Source: Nitrososphaerota archaeon (GTDB lineage: Archaea > Thermoproteota > Nitrososphaeria_A > Caldarchaeales > JAVZCJ01). Taken from it: a stretch of DNA of 64,000 nt. Below, piece by piece: positions 2,073 through 64,000 of the stretch. The notes below the pieces were generated by a model. That model saw only the letters and a list, made by a program, of their open reading frames with translations. It was not told the origin of the DNA and searched no databases. The stretch covers positions 70,346 through 134,345 of the forward strand of contig JAWAZL010000002.1 in assembly GCA_038817485.1 (NCBI GenBank). Reading direction: 5' to 3'. Within the stretch, counting starts at the first letter, position 1. Each line of letters begins with the position of its first letter. The translations under genes and the position numbers were made by a program.

Positions 2073-2357
2073 ATGCCTGTAAAAAGGAAAAGTAGAGGAA
2101 GGTCAAAAGGAGGCAAAGGAAGGAGTGAAGTAATTCATTGCGATAACTGTAAAGCATTGGTACCTAGAGATAAAGCAATTAAAGTAACCAGACCCTACTC
2201 AATAGTTAGTGGTGACTTAGCTAGAGAACTTAAGCAAAAAGGTGCTTATATCGCTCAAACAATGGTAACTAGATATCTTTGCGTATCATGTGCAATTCAT
2301 TTTGGTATCGTTAAAGTAAGAGCGAAAGAGGAAAGAAAACCAAAATTAGTTTTATAA
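2073..2357 (+). CDS. rps26e: Ribosomal protein eS26
   Basis: MPVKRKSRGRSKGGKGRSEVIHCDNCKALVPRDKAIK...YLCVSCAIH matches the eS26 zinc-binding pattern. GAGGAAGG lies upstream of ATG 2073. Confidence 0.85.
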   Translation: MPVKRKSRGRSKGGKGRSEVIHCDNCKALVPRDKAIKVTRPYSIVSGDLARELKQKGAYIAQTMVTRYLCVSCAIHFGIVKVRAKEERKPKLVL

Positions 2358-4112: not shown

Positions 4113-4178
4113 TATCTATAAAACAGTAAAAAATACTATATATTATTTTCCATGCGTAATAAAATTTATTTATAGATT

Positions 4179-5441
4179 TTAAAAATCTTCCAATGTTTTT
4201 TGTTCGCTCTTTATTTTATATTCTTCATTTTCTTTTTCATAAAAAATTGGCTGACCATAACATCCATCGTACCCTGGAATATATTTAATTTTTCTCTCTC
4301 TAACTTTAATTATCGCATTAGCAATTTTTTCATCTGTAACTTTCAATAACTCTTCCTTCGGTACATTAAGTAAAATATTCAACTCATTTCCAAATTTTCC
4401 TATTAATTTATCATGTTCTTGCATAACTTTTCTTGAATAAAGTTCTCCAGTTCCCCATGAAAAAGAAATTATTTCATATAATGGTAATAGAGTTTTAAAT
4501 GGTATAGCGGTTTCTGGAATAAAACCCTCCGGCCTATCAGCTAATTCTTCAACTCTATGCAATACGCCTATTGTTAATTTCCTTCCACATTTTGGACATA
4601 TATTGCCATTTTTAATAGCTTCTTTGGGATGTAACCTTACTCCACAATTGCGATGCCCATCATAATGATATTTTCCATAATTTGGGTCAACTTCTATCGT
4701 ATATAAGAATTTTTCTTTATCTTTATTTTTAATTACTTCAAAAATTTCCCAATATGTTATCTTTTTTAAATCAAACACATTTGCTTCTCTTCCTAAGCGC
4801 CATGGATGGGGAGAGTGGCTATCGCTATTTGAAATAAGAGTAAATTTATCAAGTGAGGATACTCTCCAATTCATATCTGGTGAACTACTAAGCCCGGTTT
4901 CTAAAGCAAAAACATGTTTTATTTGATCTTGATAACATTCTTCTACAGAATTAAAGCCTGATTTACTTCCCAAGCAAGACATCCAAGGCGTCCATGCATG
5001 TGCAGGATAAATTAAAATATCATCGCTTATATTAATAAGAATTTCTACAAGCTCTGGTGCACTTAGATTAAGTATGGGTCTTCCATCAACTTCTAAATCT
5101 CCATATTTTGATAATTCATCATTTATTTGTTCAACAATATCAAAAGATGGTGCATGGATAACGTGATGTACTCTTTTAATTTTATTTTCAAATTTAAAAT
5201 AAGTTGCTACTTCTGTAGTTAAAGTAAATAAAACATTATTATACTTAAATAGTCCTGTGCCTTCAATAGGTTCTAATTTTTTCTTTAATTCATTTAACCA
5301 TTTACTATAAGTAAAATCTGAAGTACCTACAAGATTTAATCCTTTTATTTTTACTCCTTGCGTTATCCCCTCTAAATTCATTTGTTTACTTGTAGCACGA
5401 CTATAAAAGGAATGTAAATGAAAATCGCAAATTAATTTCAT
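4179..5441 (-). CDS. PHP-domain nuclease resembling endonuclease Q
   Basis: N-terminal DFHLHSFYS PHP metal motif, about 420 aa, and an internal CPKCGRKLTIGVLHRVEELAD zinc-finger segment as in EndoQ. Assigned from memory of the family, not from a search. Confidence 0.6.
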   Translation of the reverse strand: MKLICDFHLHSFYSRATSKQMNLEGITQGVKIKGLNLVGTSDFTYSKWLNELKKKLEPIEGTGLFKYNNVLFTLTTEVATYFKFENKIKRVHHVIHAPSFDIVEQINDELSKYGDLEVDGRPILNLSAPELVEILINISDDILIYPAHAWTPWMSCLGSKSGFNSVEECYQDQIKHVFALETGLSSSPDMNWRVSSLDKFTLISNSDSHSPHPWRLGREANVFDLKKITYWEIFEVIKNKDKEKFLYTIEVDPNYGKYHYDGHRNCGVRLHPKEAIKNGNICPKCGRKLTIGVLHRVEELADRPEGFIPETAIPFKTLLPLYEIISFSWGTGELYSRKVMQEHDKLIGKFGNELNILLNVPKEELLKVTDEKIANAIIKVRERKIKYIPGYDGCYGQPIFYEKENEEYKIKSEQKTLEDF

Positions 5442-5552
5442 TTTTTTCTCCTATATATACCAATATCTTCTAAATATACTTTTATTTATAATGTTATTTT
5501 TAATTCGAAAGTTATTAAAGTAAAGAACTGAAATATTTAAGAAGAGTTAACA

Positions 5553-7355
5553 TCATTCCTCTTTTATGGTATATTCCTCCGGCGTAACATAATAATATTC
5601 TCCTATGGATTTTTGATATTTATCTATTTGAGAATTAAGTTTATTAGCTCTTGGTCTTAAGGTTGAAGGATCTCTACGAAAAGTTACTCCTATTTCTTTT
5701 AAAAAATTATTCATACCATCTCTTAATGATGTTGGGGGATTTGCTATTCCATATACTCCAGGCTCTCCAGAAAATACTATTAATCTTGTTGATACAAAAT
5801 CTATAACCATCAAATCATGATCTACAACAAAGCTATAAGAATTTCTTATACTTGTAATCCTTTTTATAAGCTTTGTTACTGCATACCTTTCTTCTACATC
5901 AAGATATGCGCTAGGTTCATCAAGCAAATATACATCAGCTTTTCTCGAAAGACAAATTGCTATGGAAACTTTTTGAAGCTCTCCTCCACTAAGCTCATTA
6001 ATTTTTTTATCCATTAGCTTTTCTAAATTAAGTTTATCTATTATTTCTGATTGTACTAGAGGAGAATTATATTCTTCTTTTGCAGCTTCTTTTATTGCAT
6101 CACTAACAATAGAATCTATTGCTATTGGATATTGTGGTTTATAACTTATATTTTTTATTGGTAAAGAAATATTTTCATCAGTTTTCTCAATTCCAGCTAA
6201 AATTTTTATTAAAGTTGTTTTTCCAATACCATTTGGCCCTATTAGACCTATTACTTCTCCTCTATAAACTTCTCCGCTTTTAATATTAAGTGAAAAACCT
6301 GGATAAGTTTTCTTCATTTCAGGCCATGCTAATTTCTCCTCTCCTTTAGAGATTGGGAGTGTCGGGGGTTTTATATCAAATGTTATTTTCTCTTTTCTAA
6401 AACGTAGATTCTCGGTTGGTATGTACCCCTCTATAAATATATTTATTCCCTCCCTCACTCCATATGGTCCAGATACAACACCATAAACAGAACCCTCTCC
6501 GTAAAATATAAATACTATATCTGACAAATAGTCCATTACTGCTAAATCATGATCACATACTAATGTTTTCTTATCTAAAGTAAATTCTCTAATAACTTTA
6601 GCAGCATTAAAACGTTGTTTAATATCTAGAAAACTTGAAGGTTCATCTAAAAAGTAAATATTAGCATCTTTAAGTAAACAAGCAGCTATCGCAACTCTTT
6701 GTAACTCTCCTCCGCTTAACATAGAAATTTCTCTATCTAAAATATTTTTTAATTCAAGAGCGTTTATTATAAAACTCATTTTTTCTTCATTATTACTTAT
6801 CTTTTTTAAAATCTCAAAAACTTTTCCTTTTATAATTCGAGGTATATTGCTTATGTATTGCGGTTTATAGGAAACTTTTAATGAATTATTAAACAATTCA
6901 TTAAAATGTTGTTGTATAAGAGTACCTCTAAAAAAATTTGTAATATCTTTTAACTCAATTTTTTTATTGAATTCTCCAAAATTTGGAATGAGTTGTCCAG
7001 CAAGAATATTTATTGCCGTAGATTTTCCAAGAGCATTTTTACCTATACATCCAATTACTTTCCCTTTAACTAAATAAGGAAGTCTATATAACCTAAATGC
7101 ATTTATTCCGTATTGATGTACAAGATCTTTAGTTAATTTATCTGGTAAATTAACAATAGTAATAGCTTTAAACGGACATTTTTTTACGCAAAGTCCACAT
7201 CCAACGCAAAATATTTCTATTATATTTGGATAGGTATTTTCATCAATTTTTATAGTTTCAATTCCAGTTCTATTTTTTGGACAAAATTTTTTACAAGTAT
7301 ATCCACACTTTTTTGGTTGGCATAAATCTTTATCGATAACTGCTATTCGTGGCAA
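5553..7355 (-). CDS. ABCE1: ABCE1 / RNase L inhibitor-type ribosome recycling ATPase
   Basis: N-terminal double 4Fe-4S cluster (CxxCxxC...CP twice), then two ABC cassettes with Walker A (GKNALGKST, GPNGIGKTT) and LSGGELQ signatures. Confidence 0.92.
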   Translation of the reverse strand: MPRIAVIDKDLCQPKKCGYTCKKFCPKNRTGIETIKIDENTYPNIIEIFCVGCGLCVKKCPFKAITIVNLPDKLTKDLVHQYGINAFRLYRLPYLVKGKVIGCIGKNALGKSTAINILAGQLIPNFGEFNKKIELKDITNFFRGTLIQQHFNELFNNSLKVSYKPQYISNIPRIIKGKVFEILKKISNNEEKMSFIINALELKNILDREISMLSGGELQRVAIAACLLKDANIYFLDEPSSFLDIKQRFNAAKVIREFTLDKKTLVCDHDLAVMDYLSDIVFIFYGEGSVYGVVSGPYGVREGINIFIEGYIPTENLRFRKEKITFDIKPPTLPISKGEEKLAWPEMKKTYPGFSLNIKSGEVYRGEVIGLIGPNGIGKTTLIKILAGIEKTDENISLPIKNISYKPQYPIAIDSIVSDAIKEAAKEEYNSPLVQSEIIDKLNLEKLMDKKINELSGGELQKVSIAICLSRKADVYLLDEPSAYLDVEERYAVTKLIKRITSIRNSYSFVVDHDLMVIDFVSTRLIVFSGEPGVYGIANPPTSLRDGMNNFLKEIGVTFRRDPSTLRPRANKLNSQIDKYQKSIGEYYYVTPEEYTIKEE

Positions 7356-11348: not shown

Positions 11349-11440
11349 GCTCCGGTAGTATAGTCCGGTCAAGTATCTCGGCCTTTCGTGTATAAAACAA
11401 AGATAGCCGAGGATCCCGGGTTCAAATCCCGGCCGGAGCA
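11349..11440 (+). tRNA. tRNA-Glu(UUC) with a 16 nt intron at the canonical 37/38 position
   Basis: Acceptor GCTCCGG/CCGGAGC, T arm CCGGG-TTCAAAT-CCCGG, and anticodon stem TCGGC/GCCGA with loop C-T-TTC-G. The insert is TGTATAAAACAAAGAT. CCA is not encoded. Confidence 0.85.
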
Positions 11441-26150: not shown

Positions 26151-27830
26151 TTGAAAATAAGTGGAAGTTTGGCATTGATAGAGGCATTAAAAAAACAAGG
26201 TGTTAAAACAATATTTGGGATACCTGGAGGAGCAATACTTCCAATTTATGATGCTCTTTATGATGAAAAAAATATAAGACATATTCTTATGCGTCACGAA
26301 CAATGTGCAGCTCATGCTGCTGATGGATATGCTCGAGTTAAAGGGGAACCTGGAGTTTGTATGGCTACTTCTGGCCCTGGTGCTACAAATCTTGTTACAG
26401 GTATTGCAACAGCTTATATGGATTCTAGTCCTTTAATAGCTATAACAGGACAAGTTCCAACTAGCTTTATAGGTAAAGATGCTTTTCAAGAAGTTGATAT
26501 AATTGGTATAACCACACCAATAACAAAATATAACTATCAAATTAGGAATGTTAAGGATATCCCTAGAATCATTAAAGAAGCTTTTTATATAGCTTCAACT
26601 GGTAGACCAGGACCTGTATTAATAGATGTCCCTAAAGATATCCAAACTGATATAGATGAGGTGTATTTTGAATCTGAAATTAAAATTAGAGGTTATAAAC
26701 CTAATGTAGATCCGCATCCACTTCAAATTAAGAAAGCTGTTGATTTACTTATAAATGCTGAACGTCCTATAATACTAGCTGGTGGCGGTATCCATTGGTC
26801 TAGAGCATATGATGAACTTCTTAAATTAGCTGAATTACTTATGGCTCCAGTTGCTACTACTTTCATGGGTAAAGGGACTATTCCTGAAAATCACCCATTA
26901 TGCTTAGGATGCATTGGTATGCATGGTAGAATTGAAGCTAATGAATCTATAATGATGGCTGATGTTGTGGTTGCGATAGGTGTTAGATTTTCAGATAGAA
27001 CTACATGCAAAGCTAGTGATTTTTGTGTGAATGCTAAAATAATTCATATAGATATCGATGCTTCTGAAATTAAAAAGAATATTTCAATTCATTTACCAAT
27101 AGTTGCAGATGCTAAAAAGGCTTTAAAATCAATAATTGATGAAATAATTCATAGAGGTTTAAAGAAAGAAAATTCTGAATGGCTTAAAAGAATTGAAATA
27201 CTTAAAAAAGAAAATACAGATACTGAACCAAAAGGAGAACTTACAGGAATGAATGCTGTAAAAATTCTACGTAAAGTTTTACCAGAAAATGCTATAGTAA
27301 CAACTGAAGTAGGACAAAACCAAATGTGGGCTTCATTATATTTTAAAGTTATAAAACCAAGAACATTTATTTCATCAGGTGGTTTAGGAACAATGGGTTT
27401 TGGCTTTCCAGCAGCTTTAGGAGCTAAAGTTGCTAAGCCTGAGGTACCTGTTGTTGATATTGCTGGGGATGGAAGTTTTCTTATGACTGAACAAGATTTA
27501 GCTACAAGTATAGTTGAAGATATACCTGTTATAGTTATGATATTAAATAACTCAAGTTTAGGTATGGTAGTCCAATGGCAAAGATTATTCTATAATAGAA
27601 GATATTCAAACACATTATTAAAAAATACTCCCGACTTTGTTAAATTAGCTGAAGCTTATGGAGCTAATGGTGCTAGAGTAAATTCTTTAAATGAGCTTGA
27701 ACAAGTTTTAAAAGAAGCTATTAAATCTGATGTAACATATGTTATAGATGTCCCTATATCGAGTGAGGAAGATGTTTTGCCATTTGTACCTCCTGGTAAA
27801 AATTTAAGAGAATTTATTTTTAAGAGATGA
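26151..27830 (+). CDS. ilvB: Acetolactate synthase large subunit
   Basis: 559 aa TPP enzyme with GIPGGAILPIYDAL and GDGSFLMTEQDLAT motifs. Confidence 0.92.
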   Translation: MKISGSLALIEALKKQGVKTIFGIPGGAILPIYDALYDEKNIRHILMRHEQCAAHAADGYARVKGEPGVCMATSGPGATNLVTGIATAYMDSSPLIAITGQVPTSFIGKDAFQEVDIIGITTPITKYNYQIRNVKDIPRIIKEAFYIASTGRPGPVLIDVPKDIQTDIDEVYFESEIKIRGYKPNVDPHPLQIKKAVDLLINAERPIILAGGGIHWSRAYDELLKLAELLMAPVATTFMGKGTIPENHPLCLGCIGMHGRIEANESIMMADVVVAIGVRFSDRTTCKASDFCVNAKIIHIDIDASEIKKNISIHLPIVADAKKALKSIIDEIIHRGLKKENSEWLKRIEILKKENTDTEPKGELTGMNAVKILRKVLPENAIVTTEVGQNQMWASLYFKVIKPRTFISSGGLGTMGFGFPAALGAKVAKPEVPVVDIAGDGSFLMTEQDLATSIVEDIPVIVMILNNSSLGMVVQWQRLFYNRRYSNTLLKNTPDFVKLAEAYGANGARVNSLNELEQVLKEAIKSDVTYVIDVPISSEEDVLPFVPPGKNLREFIFKR

Positions 27831-29347: not shown

Positions 29348-29449
29348 TGGGCCTGCTGGGATTTGAACCCAGGACCTTTCCCGCGATTGTTTCGGTTATC
29401 AGCCTCGTCCTTTTTAGTCGAACGCTCCACCATGCTGAGCTACAGGCCC
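29348..29449 (-). tRNA. tRNA-Ile(GAU) with two short insertions at non-canonical positions
   Basis: Reverse strand: acceptor GGGCCTG/CAGGCCC, D arm GCTC-AGCATGGTG-GAGC, T arm CTGGG-TTCAAAT-CCCAG. An anticodon arm TTCGG-CTGATAA-CCGAA forms only if about 15 nt (near 29/30-30/31) and about 13 nt (near 43/44-45/46) are removed. Confidence 0.7.
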
Positions 29450-34631: not shown

Positions 34632-34939
34632 ATGAAGACGAGTAGGCAGGTGGGTTACGAGATTTTCTTGGGGAAGGTCCTCCCCTCATGGAAGAACATG
34701 ACACCGTGAGGTGTAAGGGGAAACCCTTGGCAACGCCACAGAAACGAGACCCCTCTATTCTAATGAGAATGATACTGCACTAAAAAAGCAGTTGAAGAAG
34801 AATAGAGAATGGTTGAAACGGGCGTCCCATGTGAGGAAAGGCTAAATTAAGCCAATGATTGCTTCCATGAGGCTTGAGTTAGCCGATTAGAAAAATCCCA
34901 CCTAAAACAGAAGGAGGACTATTGCCTACTCGTCTTCAT
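34632..34939 (+). ncRNA. rnpB: RNase P RNA (archaeal type A-like)
   Basis: P1 is 17 bp (34632-34648 with 34923-34939) and P2 is GGTGGG/CCCACC (34649-34654 with 34897-34902). CR-I-like GGAAGGTCCTCC (34672-34683) can pair with the 3' ACAGAAGGAGGAC (34907-34919) to form the P4 pseudoknot. Also present: an 11 bp helix 34684-34694/34862-34872, GGGGAAACCC, and GCCACAGAAAC (ACAGAAA at 34738-34744). Confidence 0.8.
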
Positions 34940-36582: not shown

Positions 36583-36685
36583 CTCACTATATTATAAGAA
36601 TAATAAGCTTAATAAACATTTTCCTTAAAAATTTATTTTATAGAGAGAAAAATATAATAACCCCTTAAAATATATTCAAATATAA

Positions 36686-36806
36686 GCCGAGGTAGCTCAG
36701 CCAGACAAAACCAGGTATATCCTGGAATAGGGTAAAGTGGAGCAGTGGGCTGTTAAACTTTACTGAAACCCATTGGTCGCCGGTTCAAATCCGGCCCTCG
36801 GCGCCA
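36686..36806 (+). tRNA. tRNA-Asn(GUU) with a D-loop insertion and a short 37/38 intron; CCA encoded
   Basis: Acceptor GCCGAGG/CCTCGGC, T arm GCCGG-TTCAAAT-CCGGC, and anticodon stem GTGGG/CCCAT with loop CTGTTA. There are 41 nt between the D-stem strands GCTC and GAGC, including the hairpin CCAGG-TATAT-CCTGG. About 12 nt are inserted after position 37. Confidence 0.8.
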
Positions 36807-36836
36807 TTTTTTAACTAAATATTTCTTTAATGTACT

Positions 36837-39385: not shown

Positions 39386-39480
39386 AAACTTTAACTCCCC
39401 TTTTTTTGAAAGATTTTAAACATTTTACATTCTAGCTAAATTTCTCCACATTATTATATTTTGGTATATTATAAACATTG

Positions 39481-39738
39481 CCAGAATAGCTTCCTACCAT
39501 AGTCTAGCCTCTCTTTCTGGAACCCGCCTATACTCAGGTTGAAAGAGTATAGGTGGCACTCCTCCCATTGGGAGGCGACCGCAGGATAGCTAAAAGCTAT
39601 CCAACCCTTTTCATTGCTAATTTGTTGAATTAGCTCGGGCTTCTGCTTCAGGGGAAGTCTTCCCTTCCTTAGCAGAATGCGGTTCTCCTATGGGTAGGAA
39701 GCTTGGTTCTGGCTACCTTCTCCCTACTCCCTTTTTTT
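39481..39738. ncRNA. Unassigned GC-rich structured RNA candidate (omega-RNA-like scaffold or independent sRNA)
   Basis: Closing helix 39481-39500 with 39690-39712. Perfect hairpins at 39527-39553, 39561-39575, 39584-39602, 39616-39634 and 39641-39677. Internal helix 39578-39583 with 39678-39683. A T7 run sits at 39732-39738. No ORF on either strand. Strand is unresolved. Confidence 0.5.
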
Positions 39739-39763
39739 AAAGGGACTCAGGAAGAGGTTTGAT

Positions 39764-40639
39764 TTATATTTTTCTAAGAATTTCAATAGTTCTTTTTGCA
39801 ATATTCTTAGAAGCATTTATATGTTTATTGTTTATCAATCCGCATTTGCTACAAAAGAATTCTTTTCCTTTTATTTTTCCATAGCTTCCACATCTACTGC
39901 ATATTCTTGAAGTTTTATAAGAATCTACTAATATTTGCTTAATACTTCTTTGATTTTTATTGTATGTTGGCAAATATGTTAATACTTTCATAGAATAATT
40001 CCACAGACTCTTTTCAAATGTTCTTTTTATTATTTTTCTAAGCCATTCTGCACTCTTTTTATTTGTTTTCTTGCTATTATTTCCAGCTTCATAGTTTTTT
40101 AAATCTTCAAATGAAATTATTGCTATATCGCAATTATATTTCTCAATGCTTTCTAATGCAATATCAATAAGCTTCTTAGAAATTTTCTCAATCCAATCTT
40201 TATTTTGTCTTTGAATTCTTTTGTTTATTCTTTGGAATAATTCATTGTATTTTACTGAAATTCCATGATTTTCTTGCAATTGCCATTTTTTAATTTCTTG
40301 AAATTGATGAGATTTCATCTTTGGCAAAAATCTTGCTCTTATTGGTTTCATTTAATTATTGCTTTTATCCCATATCCATAAAAGAATAGCAACTCCATAT
40401 TTGCTATTTAAATCAACACCTATTACTGCAATTCTTTGTAGTTTCTTAAATTCTTCTTTAGTTAATAGTTTAATGTTTTTCTTTAAAGTTATATGTAGTC
40501 TCCAATATCCATTTTTGATTATTTCTCTTCTTTTATGATGCCCTTTCTTATAACTTGGTGGTAAAGCTCTAAGCATTGTTGCTTTAGCTCCATTATTAAT
40601 TTCTTTTTCTATTTCATTTTTAGAAACTTCATATTTCAT
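39764..40639 (-). pseudogene. tnpB: TnpB / IS605-OrfB-like gene, short and interrupted by an in-frame TAA
   Basis: ORFs 40639-40352 and 40351-39764 are contiguous in one frame with TAA at 40354-40352. Motifs present are AVIGVDLN (RuvC-I), IAIISFEDL (RuvC-II) and CSRCG...CSKCG (zinc ribbon). The expected RuvC-III Asp position reads NKHINASKNI. No tnpA is nearby. Confidence 0.7.
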
Positions 40640-40818
40640 CTATTAATATTCTTAACAGAAGAGTATTTGAATAAGTAGGTAAAAAAATCCTTCTTATACA
40701 ACTAAATCTATATAATTGAAGGAAATTTAAATAAGAATATAATTCATCCATTTATTTCTTTTTATTTATAATTCATATAGAATATTAAACAAAGAAAAAA
40801 TATTTGAAGGATTTGAAA

Positions 40819-41168
40819 ATGAAAAAATATATAGAAAAATATTTGCATTATTTATTGGATATAAAACTAAAAATATAAAAAAAAGATTTGCAACTTCAAT
40901 TGAGAAGAAAATTAATAATAAAAAGAAATTTGTTTTTTCTTTATTAGAAAATGAAATAGAATTTATTGAAGATAAAGATATATGGGTTACTCCAAGTATT
41001 CCATTAATTGTTTTTCTTTTATTTGGATATATTATTAGTATTATTTATGGAGATATTTTAAAGATATTTATTCTAAACATAAAAAATCTTTTTTTAAAAA
41101 ATAGAAATATTTGTTTTAGGAGAATTATTTTTTCTTTTAATTTTTTGAATATACTCATTTTCATTTAA
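40819..41168 (+). pseudogene. Membrane-protein ORF with an apparent 1 nt deficit in a poly-A run after its ATG
   Basis: A 141-codon stop-free frame (40743-41168) contains no Met, so it is absent from the ORF track. ATG 40819 is one base out of frame, and a seventh A in the A6 run 40822-40827 would join them (MKKIYRKIFALFIGYK...). Confidence 0.4.
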
Positions 41169-42101: not shown

Positions 42102-42479
42102 AACAAAGAATAGATTGTTATAAATAATCCCTCAAAAAATGAGGTACCTTAATGCTATTATGTAACAACTTTAATAGATCATAGGTTATTAATAATTAAC
42201 TACCTAATCTTTTTTTATGCGTCATAAACCTGCATTTTTAGATTTAATTTTTAGGAATTTAAGAAAAATTAGTTATTATATAAAGGATTAATAATACAAT
42301 ACTATAAAATTAACTAAGCTATATTCTCTTTAAGTTTAATTATTCCCCTAAATGATGCTTAACTTTTTATAATGTTTATTATCACTAATATCACTTTAAT
42401 TAGAAGTTATAGCTAGTATTTATTATAAGTAAACTTCAAATTCTTATAAAAATATAATTAAAAATTATTTTTACTTTAG

Positions 42480-42564
42480 CGGGCCCGGCGGGATTTGAAC
42501 CCGCGACTTGCGGCTTTCTTCAATTTAGGAGGCCGCTGCCCTATCCATTCTAGGCCACGGGCCC
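42480..42564 (-). tRNA. tRNA-Arg(CCU) with a roughly 10 nt insertion next to the anticodon loop
   Basis: Reverse strand: acceptor GGGCCCG/CGGGCCC, T arm GCGGG-TTCAAAT-CCCGC, and anticodon stem GCGGC/GCCGC with loop CTCCTA followed by AATTGAAGAA. Confidence 0.8.
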
Positions 42565-47268: not shown

Positions 47269-47460
47269 TTATTTCTTTTCTTGAATTGCTCTTTTTATTT
47301 CTTCAATACGTTTGTTTATTTCAGATATTTGCATTTCTAGATCTTTCCTTAAATCTTCTAAAGCTTTTAATTCTTCTCTTGGGTCTATTGAATATGGATA
47401 TGGCAAATAATAATATCTTGCCCATGCAGGAGGCCATGGATGTCTTGGACACCACACCAT
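47269..47460 (-). CDS. DUF5320-like small coiled-coil protein
   Basis: A Pro/Trp/Tyr-rich N-terminus followed by EELKALEDLRKDLEMQISEINKRIEEIK. This family commonly neighbours NifX-like and DUF134 genes. Confidence 0.5.
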   Translation of the reverse strand: MVWCPRHPWPPAWARYYYLPYPYSIDPREELKALEDLRKDLEMQISEINKRIEEIKRAIQEKK

Positions 47461-47559
47461 CCTCTAGGCCAATACCACCCTCTCATTTAACCACCCATTT
47501 CGTGATATTTCACATAATTACATAGTAATATTTAAATTTTTATGATATATCTCATAATT

Positions 47560-49289: not shown

Positions 49290-49385
49290 TGCAGGGGGTG
49301 GGATTTGAACCCACGATGGCTTGCGCCAATGTCTACGCCACCGGGTCCTAAGCCCGGCCCCATACCAAGCTAGGGAAACCCCTGC
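49290..49385 (-). tRNA. tRNA-Leu(UAG), class II, with a roughly 12 nt insertion in the variable arm
   Basis: Reverse strand: acceptor GCAGGGG/CCCCTGC, anticodon arm CCGGG-CTTAGGA-CCCGG, T arm GTGGG-TTCAAAT-CCCAC. The variable region is 26 nt (TGGCGTAGACATTGGCGCAAGCCATC), against about 14 nt expected. Confidence 0.8.
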
Positions 49386-53963: not shown

Positions 53964-54464
53964 TTTTTTCTTTAATTTCCTTTTTCTTTAATATATTAAA
54001 AAATAAAAAAAGCATATATAAATTTTTAGGATTTTAAAAAAGCTTTTTGTTAAGTTTAGTAATGCAATAATATATTTTTCTTTTTATCTTTTTTATTTTA
54101 CTAATAATATTCCTTGCTTAAATTTTTTAAGAATTTTTATAAGCTATTTAGGCTTTTTTTTCTTGTTTTTATTTTTTCATTTTTAATTGTTTTTGAATTT
54201 ATAAAATATTCTTTTATTAAAAGTTAAATTCGATTTTAGATTTTTGATTTATTATATAATTTTCCAATATTTTCACAGCTTAGCTTTATTTTTTTCTTTC
54301 TTTAAGAGAGTATAAACGCCCCCTAAAATCTAAGAATTTAGAAGCGGATTTAAGCTAATTAAAAGGGTTTAAAAGTTAAAGATTTTCATATTTTTCTAGA
54401 AAGCTTTTTATATTAAAAATCGAAATTAAAATTTAAATTTAAGTTTGAATATATTTTTTAGCGT

Positions 54465-54634
54465 CCCCGCGTAACTCAGCTTGGTAGAGTATCCGGCTGT
54501 AGTAGGCGTAGGCAAGATGTGTATATGATACACACAATGAGCCTACGTCAGCCACCAAGCAGTAACCGGAATGTCCCCGGTTCAAAAGAATTCGTACGAA
54601 TTCTGTACGAATTCTGAGAGTCCGGGCGCGGGGA
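54465..54634 (+). tRNA. tRNA-Tyr(GUA) with two introns (about 60 nt at 37/38 and about 34 nt in the T-loop)
   Basis: Acceptor CCCCGCG/CGCGGGG (C1-G72), D arm ACTC-AGCTTGGTA-GAGT, and anticodon stem TCCGG/CCGGA with loop CTGTAG. T stem CCCGG/CCGGG is separated by TTCAAA plus an insert plus T. Confidence 0.8.
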
Positions 54635-55088
54635 TTCGCAAAATTTTTTTATTAAATTAAATATGATATCACTCATAAATAAATTACAAATACATTTAAT
54701 ATAATTGTGCTATCACATATCACCAAAGATGTTACTAATTAGATAATAAAAATTTTATAATTTTTTTCGATTTCATTTTGTCGATTGCTTTTTAAAAGAT
54801 AAAAATTATTGCTAAAGAATTCTTTATAAACTTTATATTAAGAATAAAATAAAATTTGAATAAAATTCAAATGGATATATTACTATTTGGATTGGAGATT
54901 AAATTTATATTTCAATTACTTCTTTACTTGATTTAATTCTTTCTTTTATTTTTGATCAACATCATCAATTGATTTTAAAAGACATCCCAGATTTATAATA
55001 TGATCATCATTTATTTTTAATTCTTCAATCTTCTCCTTAATTAAATTATTGTACCAATCTCTTGGATTTTTTATATTGCTAAAAAAAT

Positions 55089-63454: not shown

Positions 63455-63702
63455 ACTATAGCAGCTTTTTGCTATAGGGATAGAGGAAATCTTTTAAGGA
63501 TTAATGACTCCAATAGAAATTGGGTTTAGACCAATAGTGGAGAAGCCGTGAGTAAGGGCTTTGGGCTTACTCATGGGGAAAGGTGAAGTGGTAGGGCAGT
63601 TGGCTCTACCCTACCACAAGCCTAACTAAGTAATGACGATAGTGGAGTAGCCAACCCTACTCCACACATTTATACTCCCCCCTTAACTCCCGTCTTTTTT
63701 TT
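63455..63702 (+). ncRNA. Unassigned GC-rich hairpin-dense RNA candidate
   Basis: The TATA-like TTTTTATAATATATAAAA (63433-63449) lies upstream. Perfect or G-U-containing hairpins sit at 63456-63477, 63546-63576, 63588-63617 and 63642-63665. A T8 run is at 63695-63702. There is no ORF. One G-U pair in the 63546-63576 stem favours the plus strand. Confidence 0.4.
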
Positions 63703-64000
63703 CTCTTCATATAGGAATGAATTTCCTATATGAAAAAGAGCTAAGGGAGCTCTAAGGGCGAGTTATACTTTTTTCCTCAATATTCCTCAATGAATAGTGC
63801 AATGAAGTGAGGATAAGCATCTTGCGATGCCTCACAGAGAGGCTCTCACTAAGAGAGTAGAAGAGGACTATTATACATCTATACATTTATACTGCTGTAC
63901 CAAACTCTAGCTTCTCCTTTAATGCTAATGGTTTATCACATGGTTCGTTATCGAAGCTTCATTCATCTTGGAGCCTTAGGGAGCACTTCACTTCCTTTTT
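63703..64000. other. Further hairpin-dense, relatively GC-rich non-coding sequence running off the window
   Basis: Hairpins at about 63706-63732 (TTCATATAGGA...TCCTATATGAA) and about 63807-63835 (GTGAGG-ATAA-GCATC-TTGC-GATGC-CCTCAC). T6 at about 63769-63774 and T5 at 63996-64000. No ORF of 60 aa or more. Confidence 0.25.

Follow-up and report, generated by a model that had tools for sequence, protein, structure and literature searches.

The split tnpB-like gene and its neighbouring RNA

A 64,000-nucleotide (nt) stretch of contig JAWAZL010000002.1 from a Nitrososphaerota archaeon (assembly GCA_038817485.1), referred to here as the window, carries a split tnpB-like gene beside a GC-rich island. 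The GC content of the window is 29% overall and approximately 22% around the tnpB-like locus, and an archaeal rRNA operon, RNase P RNA and tRNAs were identified in it with Rfam. At the locus, two minus-strand open reading frames (ORFs), 40639-40352 (95 amino acids, aa) and 40351-39764 (195 aa), lie in a common frame with only a TAA (40354-40352) between them and a TAG directly upstream of the first ATG, as described in the initial annotation of this DNA. The island (39481-39755) has approximately 50% GC, compared with approximately 22-25% in its flanks. Most probably, the locus represents a decayed tnpB-only insertion element of a clade limited to AT-rich hot-spring archaea. The element is of an ordinary kind; the odd histidine of its active site is a described family trait and gives no sign of a dead repressor. 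The whole element would span at least about 1.6 kb on the minus strand, from approximately 41077 to 39481 (Table 1).

When the two fragments are joined, all of the TnpB-like motifs first noted are present: AVIGVDLN, IAIISFEDL, the CxxC...CxxC zinc ribbon and NKHINASKNI. The joined product matches the NCBIfam model guided_TnpB (E = 2.8e-15, profile positions 154-389 of 389), under the curated cut-off, and the Pfam model Cas12f1-like_TNB (E = 6e-11), above the cut-off, with weaker matches to the Cas12f2 and IS200/IS607 TnpB models. A 20-sequence alignment showed that this product lacks the first ~95 residues common to all full-length members, the 5' fragment aligning from approximately residue 95 onward; the 3' fragment is 85% identical to the intact homologue P0003. 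An internal deletion of approximately 230 nt at the junction of leader and ORF has removed the ribosome-binding site, the start codon and approximately the first 65-95 codons. No N-terminal remnant was found upstream of the ORF by tblastn with full-length members as queries, and the AT-rich leader of intact elements is kept at approximately 41077-40725. The short N-terminus noted at first is thus a deletion in this copy and no family trait, full-length members having approximately 163 aa before RuvC-I; the longer N-terminus of the family also marks the locus, by the reasoning of the initial annotation, as an element of the insertion sequence (IS) type.

The same split ORF of 95 + 195 aa lies beside L10e in three independent assemblies (loci L037, L038 and L040), which are 99-100% identical to the window over their common parts. 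Because all three carry the identical split, the TAA is not an assembly error, as had earlier been considered. Given the loss of the start codon and N-terminus together with the in-frame TAA, the window tnpB is, judged by its sequence, a pseudogene from which no functional protein can be made. A conspecific metagenome-assembled genome (MAG), GCA_038843975.1, holds both the degenerate copy (L040) and an intact 381-aa paralogue, P0003 (L028); the window and L028 copies are 87.9% identical in ORF DNA and 91.4% identical in the RNA scaffold, which in L028 lies at 6155-6435. Outside the window, P0107 is a truncated, frameshifted family member of 226 aa (77-81% identical), which suggests that at least two decayed copies exist in the source genome.

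Table 1. Features of the window copy and repeats at the ends of related elements (window positions unless a locus is named)
Feature	Coordinates	Strand	Remarks
Putative guide	39461..39480	-	variable sequence directly 3' of scaffold, AATGTTTATAATATACCAAA (also written AATGTTTATAATATACC)
Omega-RNA (reRNA) scaffold, ~275 nt, predicted	39481..39755	-	nhmmer, covariation, pairing statistics
Scaffold 5' hairpin	39755-39719	-	RNAalifold consensus
Scaffold closing helix	5' strand 39713-39688, 3' strand 39503-39481	-	encloses five internal hairpins
tnpB pseudogene 3' fragment, 195 aa	39764..40351	-	RuvC-II (FEDL), CxxC...CxxC zinc ribbon, NKHINASKNI
In-frame TAA stop	40352..40354	-	Ser or Leu here in homologues
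tnpB pseudogene 5' fragment, 95 aa	40355..40639	-	RuvC-I (GVDLN); ATG fortuitous
Deletion scar, ~230 nt missing	40640..40724	-	alignment with L034 and L004
Left-end / 5' leader, AT-rich, non-coding	40725..41077	-	blastn 84-89% identity to regions upstream of ORF in L004, L034
Direct-repeat pair	L001:3068-3081 and 5166-5179		14 nt
Direct-repeat pair	L029:4072-4083 and 6426-6437		12 nt
Direct-repeat pair	L034:3441-3451 and 5460-5470		11 nt
Direct-repeat pair	L033:3714-3723 and 5447-5456		10 nt
Direct-repeat pair	L008:119-127 and 2190-2198		9 nt
Terminal inverted repeat, 10/11 bp	L033:3724-3734 / 5435-5445		GGCGTGTCYAA ... TTRGACACGCC
Terminal inverted repeat	L035:3726-3735 / 5433-5443
Terminal inverted repeat	L034:3454-3463 / 5448-5458
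Left-end inverted-repeat motif only	L013:2479-2489

A covarying RNA on the gene strand

On both strands, the predicted fold of the island is much more stable than those of 200 shuffled sequences, none of which did as well (z = -8.7 for plus, -6.4 for minus), with single-sequence fold energies of -119.7 and -113.4 kcal/mol, respectively. The fold consists of a 22-base-pair (bp) closing helix and five perfect 6-9 bp hairpins, in agreement with the multi-hairpin island of the initial annotation. Of the extent then proposed, the right end at 39481 stood, and the upper end moved from 39738 to 39755, which the conserved RNA reaches. Rfam models searched against 39400-39800 on both strands, at the gathering threshold and at E <= 10, returned no housekeeping or other family, with two chance matches to microRNA models alone; known families such as signal recognition particle RNA were discarded as candidates on this ground.

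Approximately 30 homologous loci were fetched for comparison. A homologue of the island was found with blastn and nhmmer directly 3' of the ORF in every locus with enough downstream DNA (~27 loci). A profile of a 16-sequence alignment in gene orientation (A2) recovered window positions 39755-39480 on the minus strand with E = 1.6e-67, and neither blastn nor this profile found a second scaffold copy in the window. RNAalifold assigned 67 pairs to A2, 23 of which show compensatory double changes, the kind of evidence that had been called for at the outset. Standard pairs fill 94.8% of cells, compared with 40-51% when the partners are slid by 1-3 columns, and the observed covariation was reached by 0 of 500 column shuffles. 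All consensus helices are still formed in the single-sequence fold of the window copy.

The alignment also distinguishes the strands. Cells holding G-U or U-G number 130 and those holding A-C or C-A 13, and 996 of 1051 cells can pair on the gene strand, compared with 879 of 1051 on the opposite one. The excess of G-U over A-C, which would turn into mismatches on the plus strand, thus places the RNA on the gene (minus) strand. The T7 run at 39732-39738, earlier read as a plus-strand end, corresponds to the A-rich loop and the stem of the covarying minus-strand 5' hairpin; the homologues have no T-run at this place, and their hairpin overlaps the C-terminal tail codons.

Conservation across the 16 aligned loci ends exactly at 39481, at the 3' strand of the closing helix, and the sequence beyond is different in every locus. 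This sharp end points to an omega-RNA scaffold followed by a variable guide; a cognate structured 3' RNA with a sharp scaffold/guide boundary, as expected of a TnpB, is therefore found here. The putative guide of the window copy lies approximately 95 nt upstream of the L10e start codon, and its one match elsewhere in the 64-kb window has three mismatches, no better than expected from shuffled sequence. From this comparative evidence, the RNA at 39755-39481 is predicted to be the minus-strand omega-RNA scaffold of the tnpB-like gene. Hence, of the first alternative in the initial annotation, the minus-strand scaffold, the closing duplex next to the guide and the decaying gene have stood; its nuclease-dead, domesticated part has not, for the reasons given below.

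Several variations of the RNA were observed. The outer closing helix occurs in two covarying flavours, GCCAGAA/TTCTGGC and GGCGTG/CACGCC, and in L012 a GCCAGAA 5' strand is combined with a CACGCC 3' strand, so that the outer helix is broken. In L003, a partial second copy of the scaffold 3' end (4132-4175) lies just past the right end. L028 (4700-5000), L003, L009 and L010 carry a different GC-rich, hairpin-rich leader upstream of the ORF, and the L028-type leader contains the partial closing-helix sequence TAGGAAGCTTGG.

A narrow TnpB clade with an Asp-Glu-His active site

A search of 5.8 billion proteins yielded 206 homologues, most with lengths of 380-430 aa and identities of 56-86%. Their sources are hot-spring metagenomes and MAGs labelled Nitrososphaerota or Aenigmatarchaeota archaeon. 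In a profile scan of 1.84 billion cluster representatives (50% clustering), 12 representatives at E <= 1e-30 were followed by a steep drop to generic TnpBs near 1e-8. No family relatives were found in viral contigs, and one family locus only was found among GTDB species representatives. The protein represents a narrow TnpB clade of approximately 390 aa from AT-rich hot-spring archaea.

Family members match guided_TnpB with E = 1e-13 to 1e-15 and Cas12f1-like_TNB above the cut-off, and the family profile, compared with solved structures, matches Cas12f and TnpB chains. For an AlphaFold2 model of intact P0003 (mean pLDDT 75, pTM 0.71), the best structural matches are AsCas12f and OsCas12f, with ISFba1 TnpB and Fanzor2 next, all over the full length (TM ~0.5 for Cas12f). 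RuvC-I, -II and -III, the zinc ribbon (TNB) and a WED/REC N-terminus are all present in the family, the N-terminal ~95 aa being absent from the window copy itself. No variation was seen in the 20-sequence alignment at the Asp of RuvC-I (GVDLN), the Glu of RuvC-II (FE[DN]L), the four zinc-ribbon Cys, or the His and Asn of N-x-H-x-N-[AS]. The family resembles Cas12f (type V-F) in its best structural matches, its NAxxNA-type RuvC-III context and its miniature size; unlike Cas12f, it is accompanied by neither a CRISPR array nor cas genes, and a single fused scaffold plus guide lies at the element end.

As first noted for the window copy, RuvC-III carries no Asp. Alignment of the family profile with solved Cas12f and TnpB chains puts the family His opposite the catalytic Asp of NADYNAARNI, and this His, residue 363 in P0003, is found in 113 of the 114 members with a recognisable motif (120 members retrieved). 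The canonical Asp-Glu-Asp triad is thus replaced by one in which Asp and Glu are kept and the third residue is His. Among the nearest outgroups, P0121 has Asp-Glu-His and P0141 the canonical Asp; P0185, from another clade, has His.

In nucleases of the RNase H fold, His can stand in for a catalytic Asp. Examples are the DEDH of Argonaute PIWI domains and the His at the corresponding motif of some RuvC resolvases. That Asp, Glu and His never vary in the present alignment points to a constrained rather than a drifting site. Because all three residues are invariant, the Asp-Glu-His site is most likely functional, perhaps with a changed metal or substrate preference. Six large TnpB branches with altered RuvC-III have been described, the largest of which carries exactly the Asp-to-His change and several of which are nearly archaea-only (Altae-Tran et al. 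2023, PMC10691335); these TnpBs with rearranged RuvC-III (RIIIr) were argued from their conservation to stay active (PMC10691335). The present family shares with them a clade-wide D-to-H change and a long 3' non-coding region, and some of those branches, too, are largely archaeal. It departs from their description in lacking an upstream ribbon-helix-helix (RHH)/MazE partner gene and, in particular, from RIIIr-4, in which the D-to-H change accompanies loss of the C4 zinc finger (PMC10691335), in that its four Cys are invariant. The label "RuvC-III-dead" is therefore unsupported; the data show a non-canonical Asp-Glu-His site of an already described class.

Two relatives, P0125 (L043:225-1226) and P0143, have lost all three catalytic residues: both carry Tyr in place of Asp, Ile or Leu in place of Glu, and Tyr or Asn in place of His. 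Downstream of P0125 lie a distinct GC-rich structured region (L043, RNA-like, 1230-1540, z = -7.1) and a LAGLIDADG-like ORF. Both proteins lie on contigs of at most 2.6 kb and may be regarded as candidate nuclease-dead archaeal derivatives.

Genomic context of the element

In intact elements, an AT-rich leader precedes a TnpB gene of ~390 aa and a scaffold of ~275 nt, which begins at the ORF 3' end and stops exactly at the right boundary of the element. Gene neighbourhoods differ among all loci and comprise ordinary housekeeping genes. Three long contigs each carry two paralogues (71-83% identical), and in several assemblies (L030, L037, L039, L041 and L042) the contig ends or its flank is exchanged within the element, which is typical of repeated DNA. 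On this sequence context, a multi-copy tnpB-only element fits better than a domesticated single-copy gene.

Archaeal IS200/IS605 tnpB elements with 3'-overlapping non-coding RNAs are known (PMC4615843). The present elements are most readily compared with the TnpB-omega-RNA systems of tnpB-only IS200/IS605 elements (IS1341 group). Shared features are the TnpB/Cas12f fold with RuvC-I, RuvC-II, zinc ribbon and RuvC-III; a structured RNA that begins in or at the ORF 3' end, stops at the right end and is followed by a variable guide; the absence of a transposase gene inside the element; and the presence of several copies per genome. In contrast to the IS1341 group, the scaffold is long (~275 nt), some copies have direct repeats of 9-14 bp and terminal inverted repeats of 10/11 bp, and the protein falls below the NCBIfam TnpB cut-off.

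Some assemblies of conspecific MAGs link one element to differing left flanks. The left flank of L037 is not that of the window, and identity between the two starts at ~41072, the L037 breakpoint; another such case is L030 versus L029. L039, with a breakpoint in the ORF (locus position ~5390), joins the left context and 5' part of the intact copy, as in L028, to the 3' part of the window copy and its right flank. Such differing left flanks result from recombination of one copy with another or from chimeric assembly at repeats.

Proposed mechanism and points that weigh against it

By analogy with known TnpB systems, the gene strand would be transcribed into the RNA, together with the gene or afterwards, and TnpB would bind the scaffold portion. 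The first ~16-20 nt of host DNA past the boundary would then serve as the guide, and the complex would recognise, and probably cut, a copy of the site free of the element beside a T-rich target-adjacent motif (TAM), helping the element to persist. The T-rich motif beside the guide-matching left copies described below is the sole hint of TAM-dependent DNA cleavage. The window RNA is structurally intact and could be loaded in trans by the intact paralogue of the conspecific genome.

Several points weigh against the reading of the locus as a tnpB-only element that works in this manner. DNA cleavage by an Asp-Glu-His TnpB is a prediction and the trans-loading of an orphan RNA a speculation; transcription, RNA ends and guide length are all deduced from the DNA itself. 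The family scores 48-56 bits against the NCBIfam TnpB model, whose cut-off is 100. No transposase was found within or beside the family gene in ~25 loci, leaving supply in trans as a possible source. The element ends, moreover, differ from those of IS200/IS605, in which neither target-site duplications nor terminal inverted repeats are expected; in this family, direct repeats and terminal inverted repeats occur in some loci, and other loci have neither.

With regard to direct repeats, the first 14, 12, 11, 10 and 9 nt after the scaffold are repeated exactly at the far left of the element in L001, L029/L031, L034, L033 and L008, respectively. Of 15 same-locus pairs, 4 have a repeat of 10 nt or more, compared with 1 of 154 cross-locus controls, in which the right flank of one locus was matched against the region upstream in another. 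In each of the five loci, a T-rich stretch of 5 nt directly precedes the left copy (TTTTA, TTTTA, TTTTT, ACTTT and TTTTT). No convincing direct repeats were found in L046, L049 or L051, and the left termini that adjoin the repeats could not be aligned with one another for L001, L029 and L008. These repeats look like variable-length target-site duplications or TAM-flanked partial self-targets.

Terminal inverted repeats of the form GGCGTGTC[CT]AA / TT[AG]GACACGCC are present in L033, L034 and L035, where the left copy of the direct repeat adjoins the inverted repeat; the end motif, also written GGCGTGTCCAA, bounds some family elements. The GGCGTG word of this repeat is also the 5' strand of the scaffold closing helix, and elements of the GCCAGAA type have no such inverted repeat. 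As a general feature of the family, the terminal inverted repeat was rejected, occurring in 3-4 loci only, with GGCGTGTCYAA not enriched in the window.

Direct and inverted repeats of this kind are not typical of the classic IS200/IS605 mechanism and hence weaken the claim of IS200/IS605 membership. TnpBs on DDE-type transposons with inverted ends, as well as solo TnpBs mobilised in trans, have been reported (PMC10691335), so that a mobilisation partner other than a Y1 transposase is a reasonable guess for this family by analogy. A further proposal, speculative and rather unlikely as a whole, is that insertion duplicates a 9-14 bp TAM-adjacent target instead of proceeding by IS200/IS605 peel-and-paste. 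The right copy would then form the 5' part of the guide and the left copy a TAM-flanked partial self-target at the left junction of the element; the ribonucleoprotein might cut empty sites that match in full but only bind its own left end, in autoregulation or for protection, and P0125 and P0143 would be archaeal TldR-like candidates, the first of their kind if the proposal is true.

A comparison of L046 with L047 as filled and empty sites was also attempted and set aside, because the difference fell in an unrelated TnpB gene. This gene (L046:6950-8089; 379 aa, canonical DRD) lies 2 kb downstream of the family gene, and the near-identical L047 carries a 339-nt deletion in it (7093).

Alternative explanations

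The most serious alternative is that the locus is a fully dead relic, in which both gene and RNA are non-functional and the RNA looks intact only because little time has elapsed. The gene is clearly dead, and the contig appears to carry another truncated copy (P0107). In addition, conspecific assemblies all carry essentially the same sequence here, and selection on the RNA is therefore not measurable. On the other side stand the consensus helices, every one of which is still formed in the window fold, and the intact paralogue with a 91% identical scaffold in the conspecific MAG, neither of which is proof of function. A dead relic is accordingly a possibility of some weight, though not the likelier state of the locus.

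A second alternative, on which the initial annotation had drawn, is a nuclease-dead, domesticated TnpB that acts as an RNA-guided repressor, an archaeal counterpart of TldR, and binds a host or element promoter without cutting. TldRs are likewise derived from TnpB and combine an altered RuvC site with a downstream guide RNA (PMC10705468). In the present family, the RuvC-III Asp is replaced, and 4-5 related loci contain, ahead of the element's own gene and beside a T-rich motif, a site matched by the first 9-14 nt of the guide; this length falls within the TldR guide range of 9-16 nt (PMC10705468). Moreover, copies on the same contig are old (71-83% identical) yet intact, and the triple-mutated relatives P0125 and P0143 exist. 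However, TldRs were defined by at least two missing catalytic residues, since single changes are often spurious (Wiegand et al., PMC10705468), or they lose the C-terminus; they are also immobile and tied to specific host genes. The family here has changed one catalytic residue of three, keeping Asp and Glu and gaining an invariant His that is present in intact members as well, and this D-to-H class was inferred to be active (PMC10691335). Its members are scattered through varied contexts in several copies per genome with no conserved neighbour, and neither residue loss or C-terminal truncation of the TldR kind nor an immobilised host-gene association with a guide-matched promoter was found. 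The window guide has no target beyond chance in 64 kb, and the window protein is a pseudogene in any case. A TldR-like repressor is therefore improbable.

Finally, an independent plus-strand small RNA or housekeeping RNA that abuts the pseudogene and ends at the T7 run, the second alternative of the initial annotation, gains from a slightly better single-sequence fold on the plus strand and from the position of the run after the island on that strand, but is scarcely credible in view of the pairing counts (130 G-U versus 13 A-C cells, 996 versus 879 pairing cells) that favour the gene strand, the unconserved T-run inside a covarying 5' hairpin, the constant position of the RNA 3' of the family ORF across unrelated contexts, never apart from the gene, and the lack of any Rfam family.

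Implications

The reading of the locus as a degenerate tnpB-only element has consequences for annotation: the 275-nt structured RNA, unknown to Rfam, can be described as the omega-RNA of a lineage-specific TnpB clade, and the two adjoining ORFs should be marked as one pseudogene. Both this kind of tnpB-only element and the Asp-to-His rearrangement of RuvC-III are already known. What is new is an RNA family absent from Rfam, a defined scaffold/guide boundary and hints of duplication-generating insertion. The gain for the field is modest, namely a compact, thermophile-derived Asp-Glu-His TnpB with a defined boundary between scaffold and guide; supported by a covariation-backed structure from 16 sequences, it makes the activity of the His variant directly testable. 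The direct repeats and inverted ends further hint that some tnpB-only elements are moved by machinery other than a Y1 transposase.

Other features of the window

GC enrichment in this window was first thought to mark only tRNA, rRNA and RNase P RNA. Other GC-rich islands (0.52-0.55 GC in 80-nt windows) occur at 26271-26432, 36669-36828, 47373-47526, 54434-54655 and 63496-63995. None of these five overlaps a window-wide Rfam match at the gathering score, and the four beyond 35000 gave no Rfam match at E <= 0.1. RNase P RNA (214 bits) at 34638-34933 follows the 23S rRNA on the same strand after a gap of only 44 nt, as though it belonged to the rRNA operon. Four tRNA genes of 85-102 nt, at 11349-11440, 29348-29449, 42480-42564 and 49291-49384, probably contain introns; ARAGORN missed the one at 29348-29449 and gave an odd 4-nt anticodon for the tRNA at 42479-42564.

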